From a virus (Duplodnaviria; Caudoviricetes), in IMG/VR virus record IMGVR_UViG_3300022885_000070, positions 1 to 26,369 of that record: a DNA stretch of 26,369 nucleotides; one strand, 5' to 3'. The notes beneath the pieces are model-generated. The model had not been told where the DNA came from and ran no database searches. It saw only the letters and a program-made list of their open reading frames with translations. Below are positions 3,300-20,894 of this stretch, piece after piece (within the stretch, counting starts at the first letter, position 1; every line of letters begins with the position of its first letter). Position numbers and translations under genes: made by a program.

Positions 3300-3378
3300 A
3301 GTCTTAAAAAAATCAGCAGTACTTTTACAAGAATTTATAAATGGTCAGACTGTGGATTCTAATTTACCAGTGAGGTAA
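3169..3378 (+). CDS. Small hypothetical protein, paralogue B
   Basis: 69 aa; TPIQALNNLYMASKMAPLTANDHEVLKKSAVLLQ; preceded by AATAAATA (3154-3161); 3' end overlaps the convergent ATPase gene by 34 nt. Confidence 0.75.
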   Translation: MSDTPTTKNKDSKAPEQGEITPIQALNNLYMASKMAPLTANDHEVLKKSAVLLQEFINGQTVDSNLPVR

Positions 3379-4142
3379 TCCTTCACACAAGTCTGGAAAA
3401 TCTCGATACATTTGGTAGAATAATTTTCTTCCATATCGAAAATCTTGGCACCCAAATTAAACAAAACAAATGGACTGTGGGTTGCAATAATGATCTGATA
3501 GTTGTCAGAGAGTCCTTCCAAGAGTCTGAATAATTCCATTTGTTTAGGTAAAGACAGTGCTCTTTCTGGTTCATCGAATAGAAGAGTTACCTTACCATTT
3601 TTCGGAAGTGTCTTGATATAGTTTCCCTCTGGTGTGCTACCATGTAGAACAGGTGGTGATTCGATGACATTTAAGATTTTGTTGATTTTCTGTAGACGAT
3701 ACTGTCCAGATGATGGTTTTAGGGCCATGGTGTCCATATGATCGTCTCCGGTGCTGATACCGTCCTCTGACATCTTTTCATTGGAAAAGAACCATGAGAG
3801 TCCATCTACCTTCACATCACCCTCATTAAAGAAAGATGGTGTTCCGTCCCACCCAACATTGGCCAAACAATTCCCCGGAGAAAAAATATTATAGGCATGT
3901 GGGAATTGGTCTGCCCGAGATGCCGAAAAGGATAGTTCCTCACTTATCTGTGACCAACCACCCTGACGAATCCCACAATATGCCTTCATAATCTTCAAGA
4001 GGCTAGACTTTCCACAACCATTTGGGCCGAACAATACATTCATTTTATCGGTAAAGGTGAATGTATAATTTTTTACACACTCTAGGTCGGTTGCATAACC
4101 TTTAAGAACTTGGATATTATCGATCATTTTCGTCCCTTTCAC
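3345..4142 (-). CDS. Stand-alone ABC-family ATPase (AAA_15/AAA_21-like)
   Basis: Walker A GPNGCGKS, signature-like SSGQ, Walker B/D-loop LLFDEPERAL, H-loop IIATHS. Start could be 4127 (MIDNIQV). Confidence 0.85.
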   Translation of the reverse strand: MKGTKMIDNIQVLKGYATDLECVKNYTFTFTDKMNVLFGPNGCGKSSLLKIMKAYCGIRQGGWSQISEELSFSASRADQFPHAYNIFSPGNCLANVGWDGTPSFFNEGDVKVDGLSWFFSNEKMSEDGISTGDDHMDTMALKPSSGQYRLQKINKILNVIESPPVLHGSTPEGNYIKTLPKNGKVTLLFDEPERALSLPKQMELFRLLEGLSDNYQIIIATHSPFVLFNLGAKIFDMEENYSTKCIEIFQTCVKDYLTGKLESTV

Positions 4143-4437
4143 TGTAAAAGATGTCGATACCGTGCATATCTCGAAGTAACTGTCTATGGTAATTATCCAC
4201 GGTTGCTTCCATATACTCTTTGATTTTGATGGGAGATAGATCTACATCATCCAAAACAATCCCTCGTTCTTCGGCTTTGTCATAAACAATGTTGATAGCA
4301 TCATAAAGACATATCCATCGTGCTAGTAATTCAGCATTGGCATTCGCCTTTTCCCAATATTTTAGAACATCTTCTTTTTTGTGTTTGGCTCTATAATAGA
4401 TTTGTTTTTGTTTTGGTTTTGGTTTTGTATTAATCAT
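4117..4437 (-). CDS. Hypothetical protein
   Basis: 106-aa ORF overlapping the ATPase start and directly downstream of a near-consensus sigma70 promoter. Confidence 0.75.
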   Translation of the reverse strand: MINTKPKPKQKQIYYRAKHKKEDVLKYWEKANANAELLARWICLYDAINIVYDKAEERGIVLDDVDLSPIKIKEYMEATVDNYHRQLLRDMHGIDIFYSERDENDR

Positions 4438-4444
4438 TTTTTAT

Positions 4445-4473
4445 ATCATAAAAAATTTATACCACAATGTCAA
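4445..4473 (-). promoter_or_regulatory. Sigma70-type promoter TTGACA-N17-TATGAT
   Basis: On the minus strand, -35 TTGACA (4473-4468), 17-nt spacer, -10 TATGAT (4450-4445), then 7 nt to the ATG at 4437. Confidence 0.75.
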
Positions 4474-4478
4474 TACAA

Positions 4479-4934
4479 TTAATCATTTTTATAGGTATCG
4501 TTATCGATAATATCATTCATTTCAACGGGAATTCCTTGAACCGTGGGGTTTTCAAGTGGTTGAGAAATTTGGGCAACAACGAACTGCATCGATACCAGAT
4601 TTTTATTTTTACAATGATCACATACAAATTCGATTCGCTCGGATTGATCTGGATTGAAGATCATGACATTTTGTTTTTTACAATACGCACAATCCAACAA
4701 GGTTGATAAATTTTCTAGCTTATCGAGTTCTAGTTTTTTACGACCTTCTGATAGATAATGTTTAAAAATCGACCCGAAAAATGAGAATAAAATGAACTGT
4801 AGGACGAAGAACAGTATAAACGCCGCGAAAAAATTGACACCAAACAAGAAGAGAGCAAATGCACCAATAAACGATGTTGCACTGGTGATGGCAGTAGATT
4901 GTAGGGTATTTTTTATGGTTGGGTTAAACTTCAT
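4479..4934 (-). CDS. Predicted membrane protein with C-terminal Zn-ribbon
   Basis: Phe-rich hydrophobic stretch (about aa 20-57, one or two helices) followed by CAYC...CDHC. Confidence 0.75.
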   Translation of the reverse strand: MKFNPTIKNTLQSTAITSATSFIGAFALFLFGVNFFAAFILFFVLQFILFSFFGSIFKHYLSEGRKKLELDKLENLSTLLDCAYCKKQNVMIFNPDQSERIEFVCDHCKNKNLVSMQFVVAQISQPLENPTVQGIPVEMNDIIDNDTYKND

Positions 4935-4940
4935 TCCACC

Positions 4941-4968
4941 ATCTTATACATCTTTTGAATAAAGTCAA
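4941..4968 (-). promoter_or_regulatory. Candidate sigma70-type promoter TTGACT-N16-TAAGAT
   Basis: -35 at 4968-4963, -10 at 4946-4941, 6 nt to the ATG at 4934. Confidence 0.5.
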
Positions 4969-5426
4969 TTCTTTTTAATACTTTTCTTCCCAGATGTGGG
5001 GACAAAGGCATCGGGAGTAGGTTGCTGGGCAATATTTCCGGCATTTTCGATACTCATACCAACTTTTTTTACAACCATTGCAGCATCTTTTGTTGCTCTA
5101 TACAACTCTAAAAGTGCCTTTTTCTGTTCATCGGAGATAGACTTACTATTTTTAGCGCAGTTTGACATCTTTTTCATGGCAACTTCTAGGTAAATAAAAG
5201 CATCTACTAGATCATCAACAATATGATTTAATTCCCAAGGCATCGAAGACGGACTTTCTGGAGTCGGTGCCGCTGCCAGAATACTATCGTTGTTTTGTTG
5301 TCGATTAAAGTTATTAGCATTTTTCTTCTGAGGAATAAAATCTTTTCTGGGTGGTGATGATGCCGCTGGATAAGAATTGGGTCCATAAGATCCCATGGCT
5401 TCTTTTAAAATTTTATCTAATCTCAT
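4965..5426 (-). CDS. Hypothetical protein (Pro-rich N-terminal part, helical C-terminal part)
   Basis: 153-aa ORF, tightly packed with co-oriented neighbours; N-terminus MRLDKILKEA. Confidence 0.75.
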   Translation of the reverse strand: MRLDKILKEAMGSYGPNSYPAASSPPRKDFIPQKKNANNFNRQQNNDSILAAAPTPESPSSMPWELNHIVDDLVDAFIYLEVAMKKMSNCAKNSKSISDEQKKALLELYRATKDAAMVVKKVGMSIENAGNIAQQPTPDAFVPTSGKKSIKKN

Positions 5427-5435
5427 TACAAAGAT

Positions 5436-5627
5436 TTATGATGCCAATCGACCAACTCTAGAAACGTTTCCACATCTGGTGCAAACCCAATGACACTCTT
5501 TAATGACTTCTTTGGTAGTGTGATCTTTTCTCTCTTGAACTCTTCCGTTTATAGAAGCACCACAAAAAGAGCACGGCATTGGTCGGTTTTCTAAAATTGG
5601 GTAACCGTAGGATGTTTTATTTGACAT
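5436..5627 (-). CDS. Small Zn-ribbon protein
   Basis: 63 aa with CSFC...CTRC; preceded by GATAAGTA 5 nt before the ATG. Confidence 0.7.
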   Translation of the reverse strand: MSNKTSYGYPILENRPMPCSFCGASINGRVQERKDHTTKEVIKECHWVCTRCGNVSRVGRLAS

Positions 5628-5669
5628 AAAAATACTTATCTACTTTCGATACGCTTTCAACATTTTCAA

Positions 5670-5984
5670 TTAAATAGCTGGTGTGTTTGGGGAATTTACT
5701 GGTGGTGTGCTAGTTTGTTGGGGTTTTTGGGTTTGCGATACTTGTGGAGGTTCGGGGTTATCACCACCCAAGAGTTGTCCAAATGCTTCCAATTCATCAG
5801 GTGTTAGATTTAAAGGTTGGTTATTCTGTTTTGCCAAGGTCCATTTTTGCATTAGAGTATTTATATGGGTTTGATCCAGTTTTGGTTTTGGTTGGACACC
5901 TTGGGGTTGTGTTGTGGTTTGCGATGGATTTTGTGGTGTTGCCATATTAACCAATGCTTCTTTATATACGTTGTCGAATTTCAT
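5670..5984 (-). CDS. Hypothetical Pro/Gln/Thr-rich protein
   Basis: 104 aa; N-terminus MKFDNVYKEA; preceded by GATAATTA 7 nt before the ATG; divergent from the sheath gene. Confidence 0.7.
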   Translation of the reverse strand: MKFDNVYKEALVNMATPQNPSQTTTQPQGVQPKPKLDQTHINTLMQKWTLAKQNNQPLNLTPDELEAFGQLLGGDNPEPPQVSQTQKPQQTSTPPVNSPNTPAI

Positions 5985-8240: not shown

Positions 8241-8274
8241 AAAAATAAAGACTTGAAAAGGTCTTTATTTTTTT
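8241..8274 (+). terminator. Intrinsic terminator hairpin after the sheath gene
   Basis: Perfect 12-bp inverted repeat AAAAATAAAGAC (8241-8252) / GTCTTTATTTTT (8261-8272), 8-nt loop, running into a T tract. Confidence 0.6.
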
Positions 8275-8281
8275 GTATAAT
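8253..8281 (+). promoter_or_regulatory. Sigma70-type promoter TTGAAA-N17-TATAAT
   Basis: -35 at 8253-8258, -10 at 8276-8281; overlaps the hairpin; 15 nt upstream of ATG 8297. Confidence 0.65.
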
Positions 8282-8296
8282 AGTGTAATTAATACT

Positions 8297-10090
8297 ATGA
8301 CATACGATCTCAAAATTATAAACGACATTAAAACAAATCTCATAAAAACAGATGGAGAAACCGTAAATTCCGCAATTATTCGACGGGATTGGTTCAAGTC
8401 ATCGGAAACATATAAAACTATATTAAAAATTACTCATTTTTTGGATATCAAAAATCCATCAGTAAGTGAAAGAATATATTGTATTATGAATGGCATAGAA
8501 AAATCTCCTACATGTAAATTTTGTAATATATACGAGAAAAGGTTTGTATCATCTAAGCAAGGATACAGATCATGTATCAATAAAAAATGCCAAAGAATGT
8601 ATAAAAAATGGAAAAGTCCATCAAAAAATAAAATAGATAATTATGCTCAATTATGTTTGGAACTATCCGATAAATTTAAATCAAACCAGTATAACCTATC
8701 AGAAATCTCTAAATTAAAAGAATATATAGAGATGAAGGTAGATAGAAAATATAAAAATATATCATATGTAAATCCGAAGATTATTAAAAATGATTTCGAT
8801 TTTCTTTTAAGTGCCGTATATTATACCCAAGATATATTACCACTAACATCTGATAAAACATCTTTAAATATGAGCGAACGGTATTTTTTAATAGTAAATG
8901 ATCTAAAAACACCCCAAAAATGTTTGTGCGGTAATAATAGAAAATTTTTGAATTTTTATTCCGGATATCAGAAAGAGTGTGGAAATGTATGTAGGCGCGG
9001 GAAGAGGTTAATAGAAATTAAAGACAATGTTTTAGACACCCAAAATATGACAATATTATCAGATTTTAATACTCTAAAAAATAATACGTTTCAAATCCAA
9101 TGTAATGAGTGCAATAAGATCCATGAAAGATCGTTAACCAATGCGCGTTGGATGGATATATATTGTCCAACATGTTATGGTGATGCTAATTCTTCAAAGG
9201 AAGAAAAAGATGTTTTGGCGTATATCCAAACCTTATATTCTGGTGAAATATTAGAAAATTCCAAAATCGATAATTTAGAAATAGATATTTTGTTACCCGA
9301 TATAGGTGTGGGGTTTGAATATGATGGTCTTCTTTGGCATTCTTTTGGATCAAACTTTCCTAACAATCAAGACAAAGAAAAAAATAATAAAAATAGAGGA
9401 TTAATAAAAACCAAAAAATGTGAAGAATCTAATATTAAACTTTTTCATATCAATTCAGATGAGTGGTATTCTCCAAATAATAAAGATATCTGGAAATCTA
9501 TGATTCGTAATGCACTGGGAAAATCTAATAGAATATATGCACGAAAATGCTCTATTGTTAACGATCTACCATTCGAAGAAGTCCGAAAATTTCTAGAAAA
9601 TAATCATTTACAGGGGCACGACAAAAGTCCTATAAGATCTGGATTATATTTTGATGGGGAATTGGTCTCTATTATGACATTTTCAAAACCCAGATTTAAT
9701 AAATCATATGAATATGAACTTGTTCGTTTTTGTAATAAAAAAAATTGTGGAGTTATTGGTGGTGCTTCTAAACTATTTTCGAACTTTCTAAAAATTTACA
9801 ATCCTCTATCTGTTATCAGTTATGCCGACAGACGGTATAGCGGTGGTAATTTATACAAATCGTTGGGGTTTTCGTTTAAAGAAAATACAAGAATTGGATA
9901 TTTTTATATTAAAAATATCGGAACCAAAACATATAAAAAAGTATCTAGAGTTTCGGCCCAGAAACATAAACTCCCAAAGTTCCTAGAAAAATTTGATGAA
10001 AATTTGACCGAAGTTGAAAATATGTTTATGAATGAGTATAGAAGAGTTTGGAATTGTGGCAATTCTACATTCATTTATCGTAGACTGTAA
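8297..10090 (+). CDS. Free-standing homing endonuclease, Hef-like (Vsr/DUF559-type nuclease with Zn-binding repeats and a C-terminal GNAT-like domain)
   Basis: Nuclease motif EIDILLPDIGVGFEYDGLLWHS; C-terminal IYARKC, FLENNHLQG, YELVRFC, GGASKLF, ISYADRRYSGG, RVWNCG; two SER(I/Y)...CxxC repeats; Lys/Asn-rich and more AT-rich than the flanking genes. ATG 8297 is preferred over TTG 8273, which overlaps the predicted -10. Confidence 0.85.
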   Translation: MTYDLKIINDIKTNLIKTDGETVNSAIIRRDWFKSSETYKTILKITHFLDIKNPSVSERIYCIMNGIEKSPTCKFCNIYEKRFVSSKQGYRSCINKKCQRMYKKWKSPSKNKIDNYAQLCLELSDKFKSNQYNLSEISKLKEYIEMKVDRKYKNISYVNPKIIKNDFDFLLSAVYYTQDILPLTSDKTSLNMSERYFLIVNDLKTPQKCLCGNNRKFLNFYSGYQKECGNVCRRGKRLIEIKDNVLDTQNMTILSDFNTLKNNTFQIQCNECNKIHERSLTNARWMDIYCPTCYGDANSSKEEKDVLAYIQTLYSGEILENSKIDNLEIDILLPDIGVGFEYDGLLWHSFGSNFPNNQDKEKNNKNRGLIKTKKCEESNIKLFHINSDEWYSPNNKDIWKSMIRNALGKSNRIYARKCSIVNDLPFEEVRKFLENNHLQGHDKSPIRSGLYFDGELVSIMTFSKPRFNKSYEYELVRFCNKKNCGVIGGASKLFSNFLKIYNPLSVISYADRRYSGGNLYKSLGFSFKENTRIGYFYIKNIGTKTYKKVSRVSAQKHKLPKFLEKFDENLTEVENMFMNEYRRVWNCGNSTFIYRRL

Positions 10091-15639: not shown

Positions 15640-16800
15640 ATGCCTGATGTTTCTGATAATACAACCACCAATCAAGGGGGGAGTTCTATGATAACAGAAT
15701 CCGAGACTTTGAACCAAGCCAATGATCACACTCGGGGGGGAGGGTTGTATAATATAGTTGATAAAGAAGTTGTTATAAAACTATTCGGTCAAACTGTAAA
15801 GTTTACATATCCTTATGCAAAGCATAAAGGAGATGGTATTATAAATCTACATAGCCAATTTCCGTGGTGTAATTCATCTATGGATAAATCGGAGGTTCCT
15901 GCCATATGCGCCCAAGAATTTGAATTGACATGGGGACAAACCGTGACAAATTTACAAAGGTTATTGGAGGGTGTCGATGAATATAGTGGATCTAAATCTT
16001 TAGATACTTATCTAACAATGTATTCAGGAAAACCAACAGGATTTACATATTATTTTCCACATTTATTAAGGGGTGGAAGCAGTCTACGAGAAATTTCTAA
16101 TACTTGGTCAGCGGGAAATGATTTTAATCTAACTGGTTCGATGTTGAAAGGGTTGAAGGGTAGATTTGAGTCGATTTCAGGACTTGTTGATTTGGGCGAA
16201 GAAATCGCTGGTGGAATTCTCCCCGGTTTTGGTTTCGAAGATACTCAAAAATATGGGGGAACCGCTCCTAAAACCGTAACAGTTTCTTTCCCGTTATATA
16301 ACACCGTCGATACCAAGTCAGCATTTAAGAATTATTGTTTTTGTCTATTGTTCGCGTTTCAAAATCTAAAAACTCGAACAACTATGATGACTTATATTCC
16401 ACCTAAGTTATATAAAATTTACAATGCTGGATATAATGGTGGAATTTATATGCCTTCTGCTACTGTTTCTAAATTTTCGGTTGAAGGTATCGGAACAACC
16501 CGAGTATTAGATGATCAGTTAAAGGATGGGTTAACTAACTCAAGAATATTAATACCTGAGGCTTTTAAGGTTACCATAGAATTTCAAGAAATATTATCTC
16601 AAAGTTCTAATATTATGTTGGGGTCAATGGGTGGTCAACAAGTTGAGGTTATTAATGATAAGGGAGTAGATAAAATTATGGATGTTGCTTCTAATATTAC
16701 CAGTGGTGTAGCAGATGGTGTAGCAGCTATTTCTAATAAATTAGGAATAACACCTCCCGAACCTACGGTGTCTACCGATACTAAACAATTATATAAATAA
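15640..16800 (+). CDS. Baseplate tail-tube cap-like protein (gp48-like)
   Basis: TGFTYYFP, VTVSFPLYNT, YIPPKLYKI, YMPSATVSKFSVEGIG, IPEAFKVTIEFQEI; follows the tape measure and precedes the LysM gene. Confidence 0.6.
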   Translation: MPDVSDNTTTNQGGSSMITESETLNQANDHTRGGGLYNIVDKEVVIKLFGQTVKFTYPYAKHKGDGIINLHSQFPWCNSSMDKSEVPAICAQEFELTWGQTVTNLQRLLEGVDEYSGSKSLDTYLTMYSGKPTGFTYYFPHLLRGGSSLREISNTWSAGNDFNLTGSMLKGLKGRFESISGLVDLGEEIAGGILPGFGFEDTQKYGGTAPKTVTVSFPLYNTVDTKSAFKNYCFCLLFAFQNLKTRTTMMTYIPPKLYKIYNAGYNGGIYMPSATVSKFSVEGIGTTRVLDDQLKDGLTNSRILIPEAFKVTIEFQEILSQSSNIMLGSMGGQQVEVINDKGVDKIMDVASNITSGVADGVAAISNKLGITPPEPTVSTDTKQLYK

Positions 16801-16801
16801 T

Positions 16802-17158
16802 ATGAACAACCCAATTTCAAACCCTAATAAAATGTCATCATATCGCTTTGAGAATTTCTTTAAAGTTTTTACAGACAATGATTACGACTGGTCATTTTAT
16901 AATATATTGAAAAATATATCGATATTTCCAGCCGATGACCCTTCGGTCGAAGATGATTATATTATTCGTCCGGGTGATACGTGGGTTTATATTTCATATA
17001 AATATTACAATACGATGGATTTATATTGGTTGGTGATGGAATATAACAATATTAGAAATCCCACGAAATTCCCAGAAGTAGGCACAAAAATCAAACTTCT
17101 TAATGCTTCGTATGTTTATCCGGTTCTAACAGAACTAAAGAAACAGATTGATAGATAA
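16802..17158 (+). CDS. gp53: LysM-domain baseplate wedge protein (gp53-like)
   Basis: YIIRPGDTWVYISYKYYNTMDLYWLVMEYNNIRNP...GTKIKLL; TATAAATA at 16792-16799. Confidence 0.8.
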   Translation: MNNPISNPNKMSSYRFENFFKVFTDNDYDWSFYNILKNISIFPADDPSVEDDYIIRPGDTWVYISYKYYNTMDLYWLVMEYNNIRNPTKFPEVGTKIKLLNASYVYPVLTELKKQIDR

Positions 17159-17166
17159 GTAGTTAA

Positions 17167-17853
17167 GTGGCAAGAAAACAGAAACCCATTCCAGTAGTTG
17201 ATGATGATATTCTAATCAACGGCCAATTCTATAAAGGTAACGAGCAGTTATTAAATAAGAACGCAAAAATAGGGTTCACTCCAGAGATGTTGGAGGAACT
17301 AAAATCTTGCACGAAGAACGTTTTATTCTTTGCAGAAAGACATTTTAATATCATCACCGAGGATGGTCGAGAGGTTATTAAACTTAGACCGTTCCAGAAA
17401 AAAATTCTCAAGAATCTTAAGAATTTTAAAAGACATGTGTTGTGTTGTACTAGACAGGCAGGTAAAACCACAATTGTTTCTGTATATGCTCTATGGAAAG
17501 CATGTTTCTTTGATCATCAAAGGATTGCTATTCTTGCAAATAAAGGGGAAACTGCCGAACAAATTTTCGAACGAGTTAGAATGGCCTTCGAGAATTTACC
17601 AATGTATCTCAAACCAGCCGTAAAATCTTGGAGAAAAAATGGTTTCGATCTAACTAATGGTTCGAGTATCATCATTAGTTCAGCATCTTCTTCTTCTATT
17701 CGTGGTAGATCGATTAATTGTGTGTCCGGTGATAGTATAGTAACAATGAGAAATAAATTAACAGGAGAAATTTTCAAAATTCCTATGAAAAATATCCCAG
17801 AAAAAATCGGTGGGATAAAATATTCGGATACCGAATTTATTTTAGATGATTAG
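17167..17853 (+). CDS. terL: Terminase large subunit part 1 (aa 1-184, N-terminal ATPase) fused to split-intein N-half 1
   Basis: GTG start; adenine-binding LRPFQ, Walker A TRQAGKTT, IAILANK, FENLPMYL, NGSSI, IRGRSIN; then the intein block A CVSGDSIV. Confidence 0.93.
   Translation: MARKQKPIPVVDDDILINGQFYKGNEQLLNKNAKIGFTPEMLEELKSCTKNVLFFAERHFNIITEDGREVIKLRPFQKKILKNLKNFKRHVLCCTRQAGKTTIVSVYALWKACFFDHQRIAILANKGETAEQIFERVRMAFENLPMYLKPAVKSWRKNGFDLTNGSSIIISSASSSSIRGRSINCVSGDSIVTMRNKLTGEIFKIPMKNIPEKIGGIKYSDTEFILDD
17719..17853 (+). mobile_element. Split intein 1, N-half (44 aa)
   Basis: CVSGDSIVTMRNKLTGEIFKIPMKNI...DD*, starting exactly where the terminase sequence breaks before Walker B. Confidence 0.88.
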
Positions 17854-17927
17854 CTGTATGTCGAATCGTCAAGAATTACCTATTGGTTGGATGAAAAGAA
17901 CCGATCATACAAAAACAAAAAAATGAT

Positions 17928-18269
17928 ATGGCAGATGTAACAAATTACAAAATATTTAAAAATGATGACTTCGAAATCTTAACCAAAGATGGATTTCAGG
18001 ATTTTAAAGGATTAATTGTTGGGAAAAATATAAATAAACTATTATTAACATTTTCGAACGGCAAATCATTATTATGCACTCATCATCATAAAATTATGAT
18101 AGATGATTTAAACTTTATTTATGCACATGATATGGTGGTCGGTGATCACATTTTCGGTGGACATATATTGATATCTTCCGAAAATGTTGAGAACGATGAG
18201 CCTGTATACGAATTTCTAGAAATTGAAAATAATCACACTTATTATGCCAATGATATATTATCCAACCAA
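17928..18269 (+). mobile_element. Split intein 1, C-half (114 aa), Gln-terminated
   Basis: FEILTKDGFQDFKG, block B CTHHHKI, block F/G EPVYEFLEIENNHTYYANDILSNQ followed by Cys+1 at 18270. Confidence 0.9.
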
Positions 18270-18659
18270 TGTCTGATCATTGATGAAGCTGCACATATTC
18301 CAAATGATTTGATGAAAGAAATTTGGAAATCTGTCATTCCTACCATCTCGGCCAATAAAAATGGAGAAATTATAACCATCTCAACTCCTAACGGTGCCGA
18401 TAAAGATAATAAATTCTATCAATTATATCTAGAAGCTCAAAAAGAAAATAGTATATGGGCACTAATGTTGGTAAATTGGTGGGAAATTGAGGGTAGAGAT
18501 GAAGAATGGAAAAAACAGGAAATCGAAACCATTGGATCTTTACATGACTTTTTACAAGAATATGAAAATTGTGTAAGTGGTGAAAGTATTCTAGATTTGA
18601 TAAGTATTGATAACGAATACACCAAAAAATCAATTGAACAACTCTATATCGATATGTAA
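17928..18659 (+). CDS. terL: Terminase large subunit part 2: intein C-half 1 (114 aa), 100-aa extein, intein N-half 2 (29 aa)
   Basis: Extein 18270-18569 has Walker B CLIIDEAAHIP, coupling motif ISTPNG, VNWWEIEGRDEEW and FLQEYEN. Confidence 0.93.
   Translation: MADVTNYKIFKNDDFEILTKDGFQDFKGLIVGKNINKLLLTFSNGKSLLCTHHHKIMIDDLNFIYAHDMVVGDHIFGGHILISSENVENDEPVYEFLEIENNHTYYANDILSNQCLIIDEAAHIPNDLMKEIWKSVIPTISANKNGEIITISTPNGADKDNKFYQLYLEAQKENSIWALMLVNWWEIEGRDEEWKKQEIETIGSLHDFLQEYENCVSGESILDLISIDNEYTKKSIEQLYIDM
18570..18659 (+). mobile_element. Split intein 2, N-half (29 aa)
   Basis: CVSGESILDLISIDNEYTKKSIEQLYIDM*, with block A plus the (S/K)IE(Q/D)LY end typical of short TerL intein N-halves. Confidence 0.88.
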
Positions 18660-18921
18660 ACTCGATAAAGGACTTTATAGTTCCGTCCCAATCAAACGAG
18701 AAAACGCAAACACCAAAAGGAGAGAAACCAATTTTAAATTGTATGGGAATTTTTCACCAAATACTTTTGGGGTATTATCCCGATGGTTATTGTCATGAGA
18801 CCAATACTATCTACGAACTATATAAAAGATATGATAAACAGAAGAATTCTGATAATAGACAATCTGAAATTGTCGAAAACTCGGGTGTAATTTTGTAATC
18901 ATATGGGATATTAAAAAATGA
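18660..18921 (+). pseudogene. Decayed Vsr-like homing endonuclease between the halves of intein 2
   Basis: Frame 1 KRRETNFKLYGNFSPN; frame 2 LGYYPDGYCHETNTIYELY...DNRQSEIVEN (18767-18880); frame 1 LGCNFVIIWDIKK* with its TGA (18919-18921) overlapping the ATG at 18918. Confidence 0.7.
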
Positions 18922-19235
18922 AAAAAAACAATAAAGGTTATAAAATTTTAACACCATCTGGATATCAATCTTTTGATGGTATACGAAAAATAAAAAAGAA
19001 AGTATATAAAGTCGAAACCGAGACTAAAATTATTCGGGTTACTCTGGATCATCCATTTCAAGTGGATGGTAAAGTTGTTTTAACCAGAGATTTATCTCTA
19101 TGGGATATGTTAGAAACTAAAGCGGGTAAGGAGATGGTTTTAGATATAAGCCCAGATGGTGAAGAATGGGTTTTTGATCTAATAAATGTAAAAAATGGAA
19201 GTATTTATTATGCAAATGACATATTGGTTCATAAC
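18918..19235 (+). mobile_element. Split intein 2, C-half (106 aa)
   Basis: YKILTPSGYQSFDGI, block B VTLDHPF, block F/G WVFDLINVKNGSIYYANDILVHN followed by Cys+1 at 19236. Confidence 0.93.
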
Positions 19236-20273
19236 TGTTTCCACCCTCCCGGTAAATCTGTCATTGATCCTGCCTTATTGGAAAAGCTAAAATCTCAATG
19301 CAATGAACCAATTTTGGTTACTGATGATGGTGCATACAAAATATATACACTACCGAAACCCACAAGTTTTTATGTGATAGGCGTTGATGTAGGTGAAGGT
19401 ATCGGTCGAACAAATAGTGTTGCTCAAATATTAGATATATCTGATTTAAGAAATATTGAGCAGGTTGCTGTTTATGCGCGGAACGATATGAGTCCCTATG
19501 TGTTTGGAACCCGTTTAATGGGCATTCTGAACGATTGGGGACGACCTCCGATAGCAATTGAAACAAATAATTACGGTCAACAAATATTGGATGTGTTGAA
19601 TAATACACACAATTACGAATCGTTGGTGACTTATAGACCGGATGGTCAATCTTCGCACTACAATCGCGAAGGTCGATTGGGAATCTATAGTCATACAAAT
19701 ACCAAATATAAAGGTTTGACGAATTTCCGATATTGGATCGATAGTATAAAGGCCGTTAAGTTCAACGACTTGGATACTCTTATCGAAATTTCCGAATTTA
19801 TCCAATTACCAAATTACACATTTGGTAAAAAGAATGATTCTGATAGAGATGATCGCGTATTTGGATTAGTTTGGGCATTGTTTATGTTAGAACCATCATT
19901 AACCAGAATGTTTTTCAACATAGTTGAAACCGATGAACAAGGAAGACCCTTGATTATTACACCATTCATCGACAATTCTGATCTAATTAAGAAAAGTCCA
20001 ATATTTAGTGGTGATGTTAATGTTTATAAAAAAGAAGAAAGTGTGTTTAATCCGTTAGCATTTATGCCAACCGCCCCAGATAAAGATTCTACATTAGCAG
20101 ATGAGGAAAGTATGTTAGGAGGTTGGTTGCTTAAATGGGAACCCACCGATAAACCGTTGAACGAGTATAAACAATACAATCCAGAAATTATATGGAAATC
20201 TGATGATGTTATAAAACAAGAGGAAAGATTAATCGACGAAGATAATTCTAATAGACCAATTTTTCTATTCTAA
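18918..20273 (+). CDS. terL: Terminase large subunit part 3: intein C-half 2 (106 aa) plus 345-aa nuclease domain
   Basis: After VHN: CFHPPGKSVID, RNase H-fold nuclease motifs YVIGVDVGEGIG, AIETNNYG, DRDDRVFG. Confidence 0.93.
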   Translation: MKKNNKGYKILTPSGYQSFDGIRKIKKKVYKVETETKIIRVTLDHPFQVDGKVVLTRDLSLWDMLETKAGKEMVLDISPDGEEWVFDLINVKNGSIYYANDILVHNCFHPPGKSVIDPALLEKLKSQCNEPILVTDDGAYKIYTLPKPTSFYVIGVDVGEGIGRTNSVAQILDISDLRNIEQVAVYARNDMSPYVFGTRLMGILNDWGRPPIAIETNNYGQQILDVLNNTHNYESLVTYRPDGQSSHYNREGRLGIYSHTNTKYKGLTNFRYWIDSIKAVKFNDLDTLIEISEFIQLPNYTFGKKNDSDRDDRVFGLVWALFMLEPSLTRMFFNIVETDEQGRPLIITPFIDNSDLIKKSPIFSGDVNVYKKEESVFNPLAFMPTAPDKDSTLADEESMLGGWLLKWEPTDKPLNEYKQYNPEIIWKSDDVIKQEERLIDEDNSNRPIFLF

Positions 20274-20285
20274 CTAATTATTTCT

Positions 20286-20894
20286 ATGAATCAAGCAATC
20301 CTAAACAAACAACGCCATGATAAATTCATTATGGTTTTGAGTATTCCACCGATCATGCGAGATATAATTGATGTGGTGTCAGATGATAAATTTGACCCGG
20401 ATTCTTTACAATTTTCGTGCTATGGTTCCCCGGTCCCTAATGTAAGTATTCCATCTATCGATGTTCCTTATGGCGGTCAGGTGATAAAAATATCTAGCAA
20501 TTCTCGACCAGTTTTTCCATCATTTGTATTAACATTTGTCATCGATAATGGTTGGAGAAATTACTGGATTCTATTATCGTGGTTAAACTTGTTCAACGAT
20601 CAAAAAGATGGTTCGACTAGCTATAACCATGGAAATAGATCCGAATCAGAACCTTATGCAGCAGATAAAAATAATATACCTTTCCGCGATATGGTATCAT
20701 CCTTTAAGACCTATGCAATCGATGAGTATAATAAAAAAATTATGGGGTTTGATTTTACCAATGTTTTCCCAACAGAAATAAGCGAAATTGGGTTTTCCCA
20801 TCAAGACCCATCTGAAATTATTTGTAAGGCATCATTTGCCTTTAACCAACTTCATCCTAAGTTAATTAGAGATATTGATAAGAACAATTGTTAA
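20286..20894 (+). CDS. Tail completion / tube terminator protein (T4 gp3-like, tube fold)
   Basis: LQFSCYGSPVPNVSIPSIDVP, FVLTFVIDNGWRNYWILLSWL, FDFTNVFPTEISEIGF, CKASFAF. Confidence 0.7.
   Translation: MNQAILNKQRHDKFIMVLSIPPIMRDIIDVVSDDKFDPDSLQFSCYGSPVPNVSIPSIDVPYGGQVIKISSNSRPVFPSFVLTFVIDNGWRNYWILLSWLNLFNDQKDGSTSYNHGNRSESEPYAADKNNIPFRDMVSSFKTYAIDEYNKKIMGFDFTNVFPTEISEIGFSHQDPSEIICKASFAFNQLHPKLIRDIDKNNC

Follow-up and report, generated by a model that had tools for sequence, protein, structure and literature searches.

How does a tailed phage obtain a large terminase subunit (TerL) from a gene that lies in three pieces? The question is raised by IMG/VR virus record IMGVR_UViG_3300022885_000070, which we analysed over its complete length of 26,369 bp, about 12% of the estimated genome (hereafter the window), and which encodes a myovirus structural module of a tail sheath, two tube-like genes and baseplate proteins according to Pfam and PHROG matches. 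An earlier note on this DNA had read three consecutive open reading frames (ORF1, ORF2 and ORF3) as one terL gene whose products are rejoined by two split inteins, and the present work is a computational follow-up of that reading. The terL gene of this uncultured salt-lake myovirus is broken at two sites, and we find it very probable that its three products are rejoined by two different class-1 inteins, both atypically split, into a predicted TerL of 629 residues.

In the splicing model, each short N-terminal intein fragment (IntN) would dock to its own long C-terminal fragment (IntC) and complete a HINT fold. Cys1 of the intein would then undergo an N-S acyl shift followed by thioester transfer to Cys+1, the C-terminal residue of the intein (Gln114 in intein 1, Asn106 in intein 2) would cyclize, and an S-N shift would leave a peptide bond at the new junctions SIN-CLIIDE and YEN-CFHPPGK. 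The acyl shift, the trans-thioesterification and the Gln/Asn cyclization are proposed on the strength of the conserved residues described below.

Results

Three ORFs encode the parts of one T4-type TerL

All three frames are open without frameshift, and the division of each product into TerL (extein) and intein parts, as the earlier note had drawn it, was reproduced (Table 1). The junction strings IRGRSIN/CVSGDSIV, ...ILSNQ/CLIIDEAAHIP, FLQEYEN/CVSGESIL and ...ILVHN/CFHPPGKSVID are all present. When the three exteins are joined, the 629-aa product aligns end to end with the intact TerL of the relative L091 (627 aa) at 55.5% identity and with a gap at neither junction (SIN|CLIIDE against TSN|LLIIDE, and QEYEN|CFHPPGK against QEYGN|VFHEKGK), which bears out the seamless junctions and the product length claimed at the outset. 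Among 58 related viral loci with an uninterrupted terL, the matches to N-extein residue 184 and to middle-extein residue 2 are exactly one codon apart in 50; seven of the remaining eight are colinear, their N-extein alignment stopping at residue 152, and one is truncated by the end of the locus. The closest relative found (P0004) is 67% identical to the N-extein up to its last residue and reads on as IRGRSIN-ILIVDECAH, with no intein at the first of the two insertion sites. The residue after that site is a native Cys in the intein-free terL of L066, and Ile or Leu in P0004 and L091.

The features of a T4-type (gp17) terminase are all present but spread over three chains, with Walker A in ORF1, Walker B and motif III in ORF2 and the nuclease in ORF3, and none of the three products holds the whole ATPase site. 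The N-extein matches Pfam Terminase_6N (E 3.6e-10; 40.3 bits, cut-off 22), and two PHROG families named terminase large subunit are matched by ORF1 (phrog_5989, E 3.6e-46) and by residues 114-200 of ORF2 (phrog_2, E 2.4e-12). Among PDB sequences, the C-extein matches the nuclease domain of RB49 gp17 (3C6A, E 4.3e-6) and T4 gp17 (3CPE/3EZK, E 1.3e-4 to 1.4e-4); its match to Pfam Terminase_6C (E 0.0031) is under the cut-off. The expected alignment of the joined exteins with TerL proteins was obtained both over its whole length, with L091, and in the nuclease domain, with the gp17 proteins of RB49 and T4.

Two inteins of different families at two insertion sites

Three intein insertion sites are distinguished in the terL genes of the window and its relatives: site a in Walker A (GK|S/T), site b just before Walker B, and site c after QE(Y/F)xx at the border of the ATPase and nuclease domains. 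Intein 1 of the window is at site b and intein 2 at site c. In a search of 177,635 PDB sequences, the best match of both IntC halves was CatC, from Cat, the solved atypical TerL intein engineered as a consensus of AceL-TerL and GOS-TerL (6DSL_B; E 5.3e-6 for IntC1, and E 1.3e-9 for IntC2, or 8.6e-11 when the extein flank was included), ahead of gp41-1, VidaL and a bacterial intein-like domain (PDB 6QAZ, 6VGV and 2LWY). The likeness to AceL-TerL and GOS-TerL that had been pointed out before is right at the level of the family. The PDB sequence search with the IntN-bearing tails (62 and 49 aa) gave no matches. In both inteins the split falls between blocks A and B (44/114 and 29/106 aa), so that block B is found in IntC.

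The residues expected of class-1 chemistry are in place. Cys1 is C185 of ORF1 in intein 1 and C215 of ORF2 in intein 2, Cys+1 is C115 of ORF2 and C107 of ORF3, respectively, and the block B motif TxxH is T51-H54 in ORF2 (THHH) and T42-H45 in ORF3 (TLDH). In an alignment of 14 middle pieces that carry sites b and c, T51, H54, H103, N108 and Cys+1 are invariant (14/14), and the terminal residue of the site-b intein is Gln in 12. Cys1 is likewise invariant in five of five site-b IntN tails, as is the -1 Asn when the tail of the window is aligned with the four homologous site-b IntN tails. Intein 2 ends in His-Asn. Gln-terminated inteins, such as those of Pab and Mma Pol II and of CIV ribonucleotide reductase (RNR), splice via cyclization of the Gln (PMC4031507); no atypically split intein ending in Gln was found in the literature searched.

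IntC1 and IntC2 of the window are approximately 27% identical, and the IntC and IntN sequences of the window and its relatives group by insertion site, with 41-73% identity within the groups and 19-29% between them. IntN2 is homologous to the tails of P0002 (55% identical) and P0004 (45%), and IntC2 shares 41-42% identity with its site-c counterparts in L062 and L064. The CatC chain continues with the extein residues 'CE', which fit the sequence EYG|CEF at site c in cyanophage-type TerLs, and for this reason intein 2 is probably of the AceL/Cat type and intein 1 of a further type. The site-c junction of the window is one residue downstream (QEYEN|CF), and intein 2 likely occupies the EYG|CEF site or a position next to it. 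The site-b family, with its 44-aa IntN and C-terminal Gln, seems to be uncharacterised.

Two junction positions, shifted by one residue, were seen at site c itself. At QEFG|C the Cys is native to intein-free L066; at QEYEN|C, Val or Ile stands in its place in intein-free relatives. The two positions suggest, by sequence comparison, either two invasions or a shifted junction.

Mosaic occupancy and homing endonuclease genes in relatives

The three sites are occupied in a mosaic manner. No intein is present in L066, L091 and L004; site c alone is occupied in L064, P0004, P0010 and P0011, and site b alone in L096; a contiguous intein at site a is combined with a split one at site b in L063, and split inteins at a and c occur together in P0002. 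The combination of b and c is that of the window, L062, P0003 and others, and all three sites are occupied in L097. The first terL piece of L097 (376-2079) and of L063 (2696-3889) carries a contiguous Walker A intein that starts with Ala (GK|AL...) and ends in THN|S; that of L097 contains a LAGLIDADG endonuclease (Pfam E 5.8e-9), and the Ala1 start suggests that the Walker A intein uses a non-class-1 mechanism. A near-copy of the L097 middle piece was also seen at L099:1063-1772 with a frameshift within IntC, which could be a sequencing error in this 1.8-kb contig or a decayed allele.

Relatives also carry intact free-standing homing endonuclease genes (HEGs) between the intein halves. In L064, a 308-aa gene for a DUF559/Vsr-like endonuclease (Pfam DUF559, E 9.5e-5) is located between the site-c halves; in L062, L096 and L097, a GIY-YIG HEG of 257-314 aa (stop-to-stop frame) is located between the site-b halves. 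In the window, only remnants are left. Gap 2 matches the L064 HEG over 49 aa at 39% identity (tblastn E 1e-7; BLASTP E 3e-8), leaving a remnant of approximately 40 residues, and in a tblastn database of two sequences, gap 1 weakly matches the C-terminal end of the GIY-YIG HEG from L062 (E 0.02). From these comparisons we infer that the locus arose by two independent invasions of cassettes made of a split intein and a free-standing HEG, and that the HEGs of both gaps later decayed.

An intron was considered as the cause of the gaps and ruled out, as an Rfam scan of positions 16800-20400 at E values up to 1 gave no family.

Prevalence and selection

The three-piece layout is not confined to the window. 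A profile search of a set of 5.8 billion proteins gave 59 hits, of which 27 were examined; twelve of these are middle pieces for sites b and c (237-249 aa, on contigs of up to 225 kb), and P0033 is one more, divergent, middle piece. With an exhaustive profile search, 4,987 hits reached E <=0.001; when 29 proteins, picked by length and coverage from the best 150 representatives (clustered at 50% identity), were examined, 25 proved to be IntC-middle-IntN pieces of 220-271 aa, whose IntC halves are at several positions around Walker B. Whole three-ORF loci are present in the diverged phages L062 and L097, each with its intact GIY-YIG HEG between pieces 1 and 2. The search for further tripartite terL loci that had been recommended was thus successful, both in whole loci and in many middle pieces. 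A metagenome scan with the middle-piece alignment yielded four loci only, its patterns having come from IntC1.

In three of the 25 middle pieces (P0176, P0181 and P0192), Ser takes the place of Cys as the first residue of the C-terminal IntN (..EYE|SVS.., ..EFE|SLY..), which recalls the Ser1/Cys+1 chemistry reported for GOS-TerL. Three stand-alone proteins of 155-160 aa (P0023, P0025 and P0156) consist of a site-b IntC, an 11-residue Walker B extein (CL[IV]IDE[MC]AF[IV]E) and a further IntN, and would by this layout imply four-piece terminases; P0015 has the same extra intein in contiguous form.

The ratio of nonsynonymous to synonymous substitution rates (dN/dS) among the relatives is 0.17 for IntC and 0.19 for IntN of site c, 0.34-0.37 for IntC of site b and 0.05 for the middle extein, with synonymous sites near saturation. 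By these ratios, the intein-coding parts of the relatives are under purifying selection. The layout is widespread and not unique, and this had escaped the earlier note, as had the Gln end without a penultimate His in intein 1 and the homing endonuclease remnants in the gaps.

Cultured phages with a two-piece TerL

Viable phages live with an atypically split TerL. In Campylobacter phage CPX (JN132397.1), the N-extein with a 31-aa IntN is encoded at approximately 2.7 kb on the minus strand, and IntC with the rest of the protein at 25.3 kb on the plus strand; the IntC matches CatC with E 2e-10. The two CPX halves are thus approximately 22 kb apart on opposite strands, the frame of the N half being 242 aa and the C half being annotated as a putative terminase. 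In Yersinia phage phiR1-RT and Shewanella phage Thanatos-2 the terL halves are adjacent, with the endonuclease separate or fused, and a Nitratidesulfovibrio phage has the contiguous form. The gene of the related IBB_35 was read as 'an intein and an intron' with a HEG (PMC3322345). In all four phage records that were examined, out of 69-70 with at least 80% query coverage, terL is interrupted directly behind Walker B, at IDE|CAF, and no three-piece terL was met among the four. CPX, phiR1-RT and Thanatos-2 share with the window the intein family, the atypical split and a T4-type TerL, but have one split only.

Predicted docking and the need for orthogonal inteins

The order of parts in ORF2 (IntC-extein-IntN) implies that the two inteins must be orthogonal, since otherwise ORF2 would cyclize itself and ORF1 would be joined directly to ORF3. 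The same order is used in split-intein circular ligation of peptides and proteins (SICLOPPS) to cyclize peptides. For intein 1, the predicted complex of IntC1 with IntN1 scored 0.81, the best control scoring 0.01; that mark was attained in 116 of 157 solved complexes and in 2 of 215 mismatched pairs. The partner has a predicted local distance difference test (pLDDT) value of at least 68, and the contacts agree between runs to at least 72%. In the predicted interface, the IntN1 residues around Cys1 touch IntC1 residues 112-115, and Cys1 would be placed beside Q114 and C115. The pass may reflect only likeness to the similar complex 6DSL, which has already been solved. The net charges of IntN and IntC halves show no consistent complementarity across homologues and provide no argument for orthogonality.

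Alternative explanations

It is almost certainly wrong to explain the stops and gaps by errors of sequencing or assembly in one contiguous terL with two ordinary inteins. Logan contigs of eight runs, all from salt-lake metagenomes of 2017-2019 and perhaps of one campaign, were compared with the locus. Those of the seven runs besides the likely source (X1) concur with it, and no indel relative to the window was found in any of the eight; gap 1 is spanned by contigs of X14, X15, X16, X19 and X23, and gap 2 by X14 and also, in two overlapping pieces, by X19 and X24, so that both gaps have been confirmed from runs other than the likely source. Among the sequencing runs listed for this DNA, none was of RNA. 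Two single-nucleotide polymorphisms exist among the runs (17214 and 18521, A>G), both synonymous; a second set of runs, sought for strain variants from which dN/dS in the window might be estimated, had no differences, and two more IMG/VR records match the DNA of the window at 100% identity across 8-9 kb. The error explanation also does not account for the separate ATG start of each IntC (MADV.., MKKN..), which is the same in homologues of other lineages, or for gap 2, whose sequence is endonuclease-derived and not intein. We judge it very improbable, if less so than an assembly error, that the locus is a decaying terL left after mobile-element invasion and that an intact terminase encoded outside the window performs the packaging. 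The small fraction of the estimated genome within the window and the decayed HEGs of both gaps would suit such a course, but the three frames have remained open, many lineages retain this architecture under purifying selection, and the complete 132,662-bp genome of CPX has its two split halves as the sole Terminase_6N matches. A second Terminase_6N match was not found in the longest searchable copy (52 kb); a second terL may exist beyond that copy, and this point belongs with those set out next.

Several observations weigh against splicing by two orthogonal inteins, and some of them favour the view that the intein halves are non-covalent dimerization modules of a three-chain motor that stays unligated or is ligated in part. 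Intein 1 ends in Asn-Gln without a penultimate His, a permitted but rare variant, and just four of the 14 site-b members have that His; some Gln-terminated inteins are slow (PMC4031507); and the docking prediction addresses binding only, not chemistry. In the comparison with intein hidden Markov models that had been proposed, the Pfam intein models stayed under the gathering score (Intein_splicing, E 0.07 and 0.011; cut-off 35.8 bits), the IntC halves being without block A. The AlphaFold2 model of the whole ORF2, built on a 14-row alignment, is poor (mean pLDDT 55.9, predicted template modelling score 0.41); it is all-beta and confident only over residues 30-95, and a fold-back of IntN2 on IntC1 is not readable from it. 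IntN1 and IntN2 share six of their first eight residues, so that orthogonality is not obvious from the sequences, and the IntN fragments of GOS-TerL and AceL-TerL are interchangeable (PMC11766414). The two-step trans-splicing, its order, its product and the orthogonality are likewise predictions from sequence. We nevertheless consider unligated docking modules improbable, because Cys1, TxxH, the block F His, a cyclizable end and Cys+1 are conserved across the 14 diverged middle pieces and are unneeded for docking alone, and because bulky HINT domains left next to Walker B and at the hinge between ATPase and nuclease would probably interfere with the motor. Rejoining of the three products by two split inteins is the reading that we retain.

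Layout of the locus

The features of the locus are listed in Table 1. Promoter-like sites are at the chance level (21 found, 20.1 expected); there are six weak terminator-like sites where 1.7 were expected, and they are not cleanly placed in the gaps. Upstream of terL is a gene for a LysM-domain protein (16802-17158) and downstream a tube-like phrog_45 gene (20286-20894), and this synteny is kept in L062, L064, L066, L090, L091 and L097.

Table 1. Coordinates of the terL pieces, intein fragments and gaps in the window
Feature	Position	Strand	Description
ORF1	17167-17853	+	228 aa, GTG start; 184-aa TerL N-part and 44-aa IntN
ORF2	17928-18659	+	243 aa; 114-aa IntC, 100-aa TerL middle part and 29-aa IntN
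ORF3	18918-20273	+	451 aa; 106-aa IntC and 345-aa nuclease domain
N-extein	17167..17718	+	ORF1 residues 1-184; ATPase N-part with Walker A RQAGKTT, end ...IRGRSIN
IntN of intein 1 (site b)	17719..17853	+	44 aa from CVSGDSIV, then stop codon
Gap 1	17854..17927	+	74 nt, non-coding; possibly what is left of the tail of a GIY-YIG homing endonuclease (..LPIGWMK..)
IntC of intein 1 (site b)	17928..18269	+	114 aa; block B T51..H54, block F H103, end ...NDILSNQ
Middle extein	18270..18569	+	100 aa; Cys+1, Walker B CLIIDE, motif III ISTPNG, end ...FLQEYEN
IntN of intein 2 (site c)	18570..18659	+	29 aa from CVSGESIL, then stop codon
Gap 2	18660..18917	+	258 nt; degenerate remnant of a DUF559/Vsr-like free-standing homing endonuclease at 18722-18844
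51-aa ORF inside gap 2	18743-18898		
IntC of intein 2 (site c)	18918..19235	+	106 aa; block B T42..H45, end ...NDILVHN
C-extein	19236..20273	+	345 aa and stop codon; Cys+1, TerL RNase H-like nuclease domain

Two regions elsewhere in the window were noted. A 605-aa ORF on the plus strand (8273-10090), between the tail sheath and tail tube genes, matches PHROG families named as homing/HNH endonucleases (E 3.8e-95 and 4.7e-92) and has no Pfam match; the PHROG name may be wrong and the protein a structural one. On the minus strand (3345-5984), five small ORFs are found between the tail fibre and sheath genes, one of them encoding a 265-aa ABC-type ATPase (AAA_21/AAA_15, E 1.3e-13), and this island could be a moron or a defence-related cassette.

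Discussion

A tailed phage cannot do without TerL, and if the enzyme depends on two ligations, mobile elements would hold an essential gene hostage to an extreme degree. One may go further and regard multi-piece terminases as maintained systems of tandem orthogonal trans-splicing, not just as scars of selfish elements, by which the packaging ATPase-nuclease is gated after translation: Walker A, Walker B and the nuclease would remain on different chains as long as the two distinct split inteins have not acted, and the Gln-terminated one would have its own kinetics. We think this unlikely on present evidence. If it were true, nature would have pre-evolved orthogonal pairs of atypical inteins for three-segment protein ligation.

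The locus is of value mainly for this extreme fragmentation of an essential gene and for the pairs of atypical split inteins that it would naturally provide, their orthogonality being deduced from the layout. The order of parts in ORF2 would imply in vivo selection against cross-reaction of the inteins, which is the property sought for tandem trans-splicing and three-segment labelling (PMC12707363). The short IntN fragments can be made synthetically, and the diverged middle pieces amount to a ready panel of natural intein pairs.

Comparison with known systems

Single atypically split TerL inteins, two-piece fractured genes and engineered tandem trans-splicing are already known. In the full-text literature searched, only engineered systems came up, and no natural gene whose three pieces are rejoined by a pair of split inteins; that coverage did not extend to Thiel 2014, Bachmann and Mootz 2015, Stevens 2018 and Burton 2020, which may bear on the question. 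The statement of the earlier note that it knew of no characterised three-piece terminase agrees with the literature searched.

Inteins of the AceL-TerL/GOS-TerL type have an IntN of 25-37 aa and an IntC of 104-115 aa (PMC11766414). The inteins of the window share with AceL-TerL, GOS-TerL and Cat (6DSL) the short IntN, the long IntC, block B in IntC and the TerL host. Those three were characterised singly and with model exteins, whereas the window has two site families in one gene, and intein 1 differs from them in its site before Walker B, its longer IntN and its Gln end. The C-terminal Gln is shared with the Pab and Mma Pol II and CIV RNR inteins, but those are contiguous and reside in other hosts.

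The fractured genes of Dassa 2009 (PMC2677866) consist of N-extein-IntN, a free-standing HEG (GIY-YIG or Vsr-like) and IntC-C-extein on one strand, and exactly this layout is present in L062, L064, L096 and L097. The genes described there are fractured in two, whereas terL of the window is fractured twice and both of its HEGs are remnants. The fractured loci of Dassa 2009 include a Lake Gatun terminase with a 122-residue IntC; compared by eye only, that IntC resembles the site-a family of P0002 and P0006 and not the inteins of the window.

Three protein segments have been joined by two orthogonal split inteins in engineered systems (PMC11185735; PMC12707363). Engineered tandem trans-splicing is a laboratory design, whereas the pairing in the window is natural and must avoid cyclization of the middle piece.

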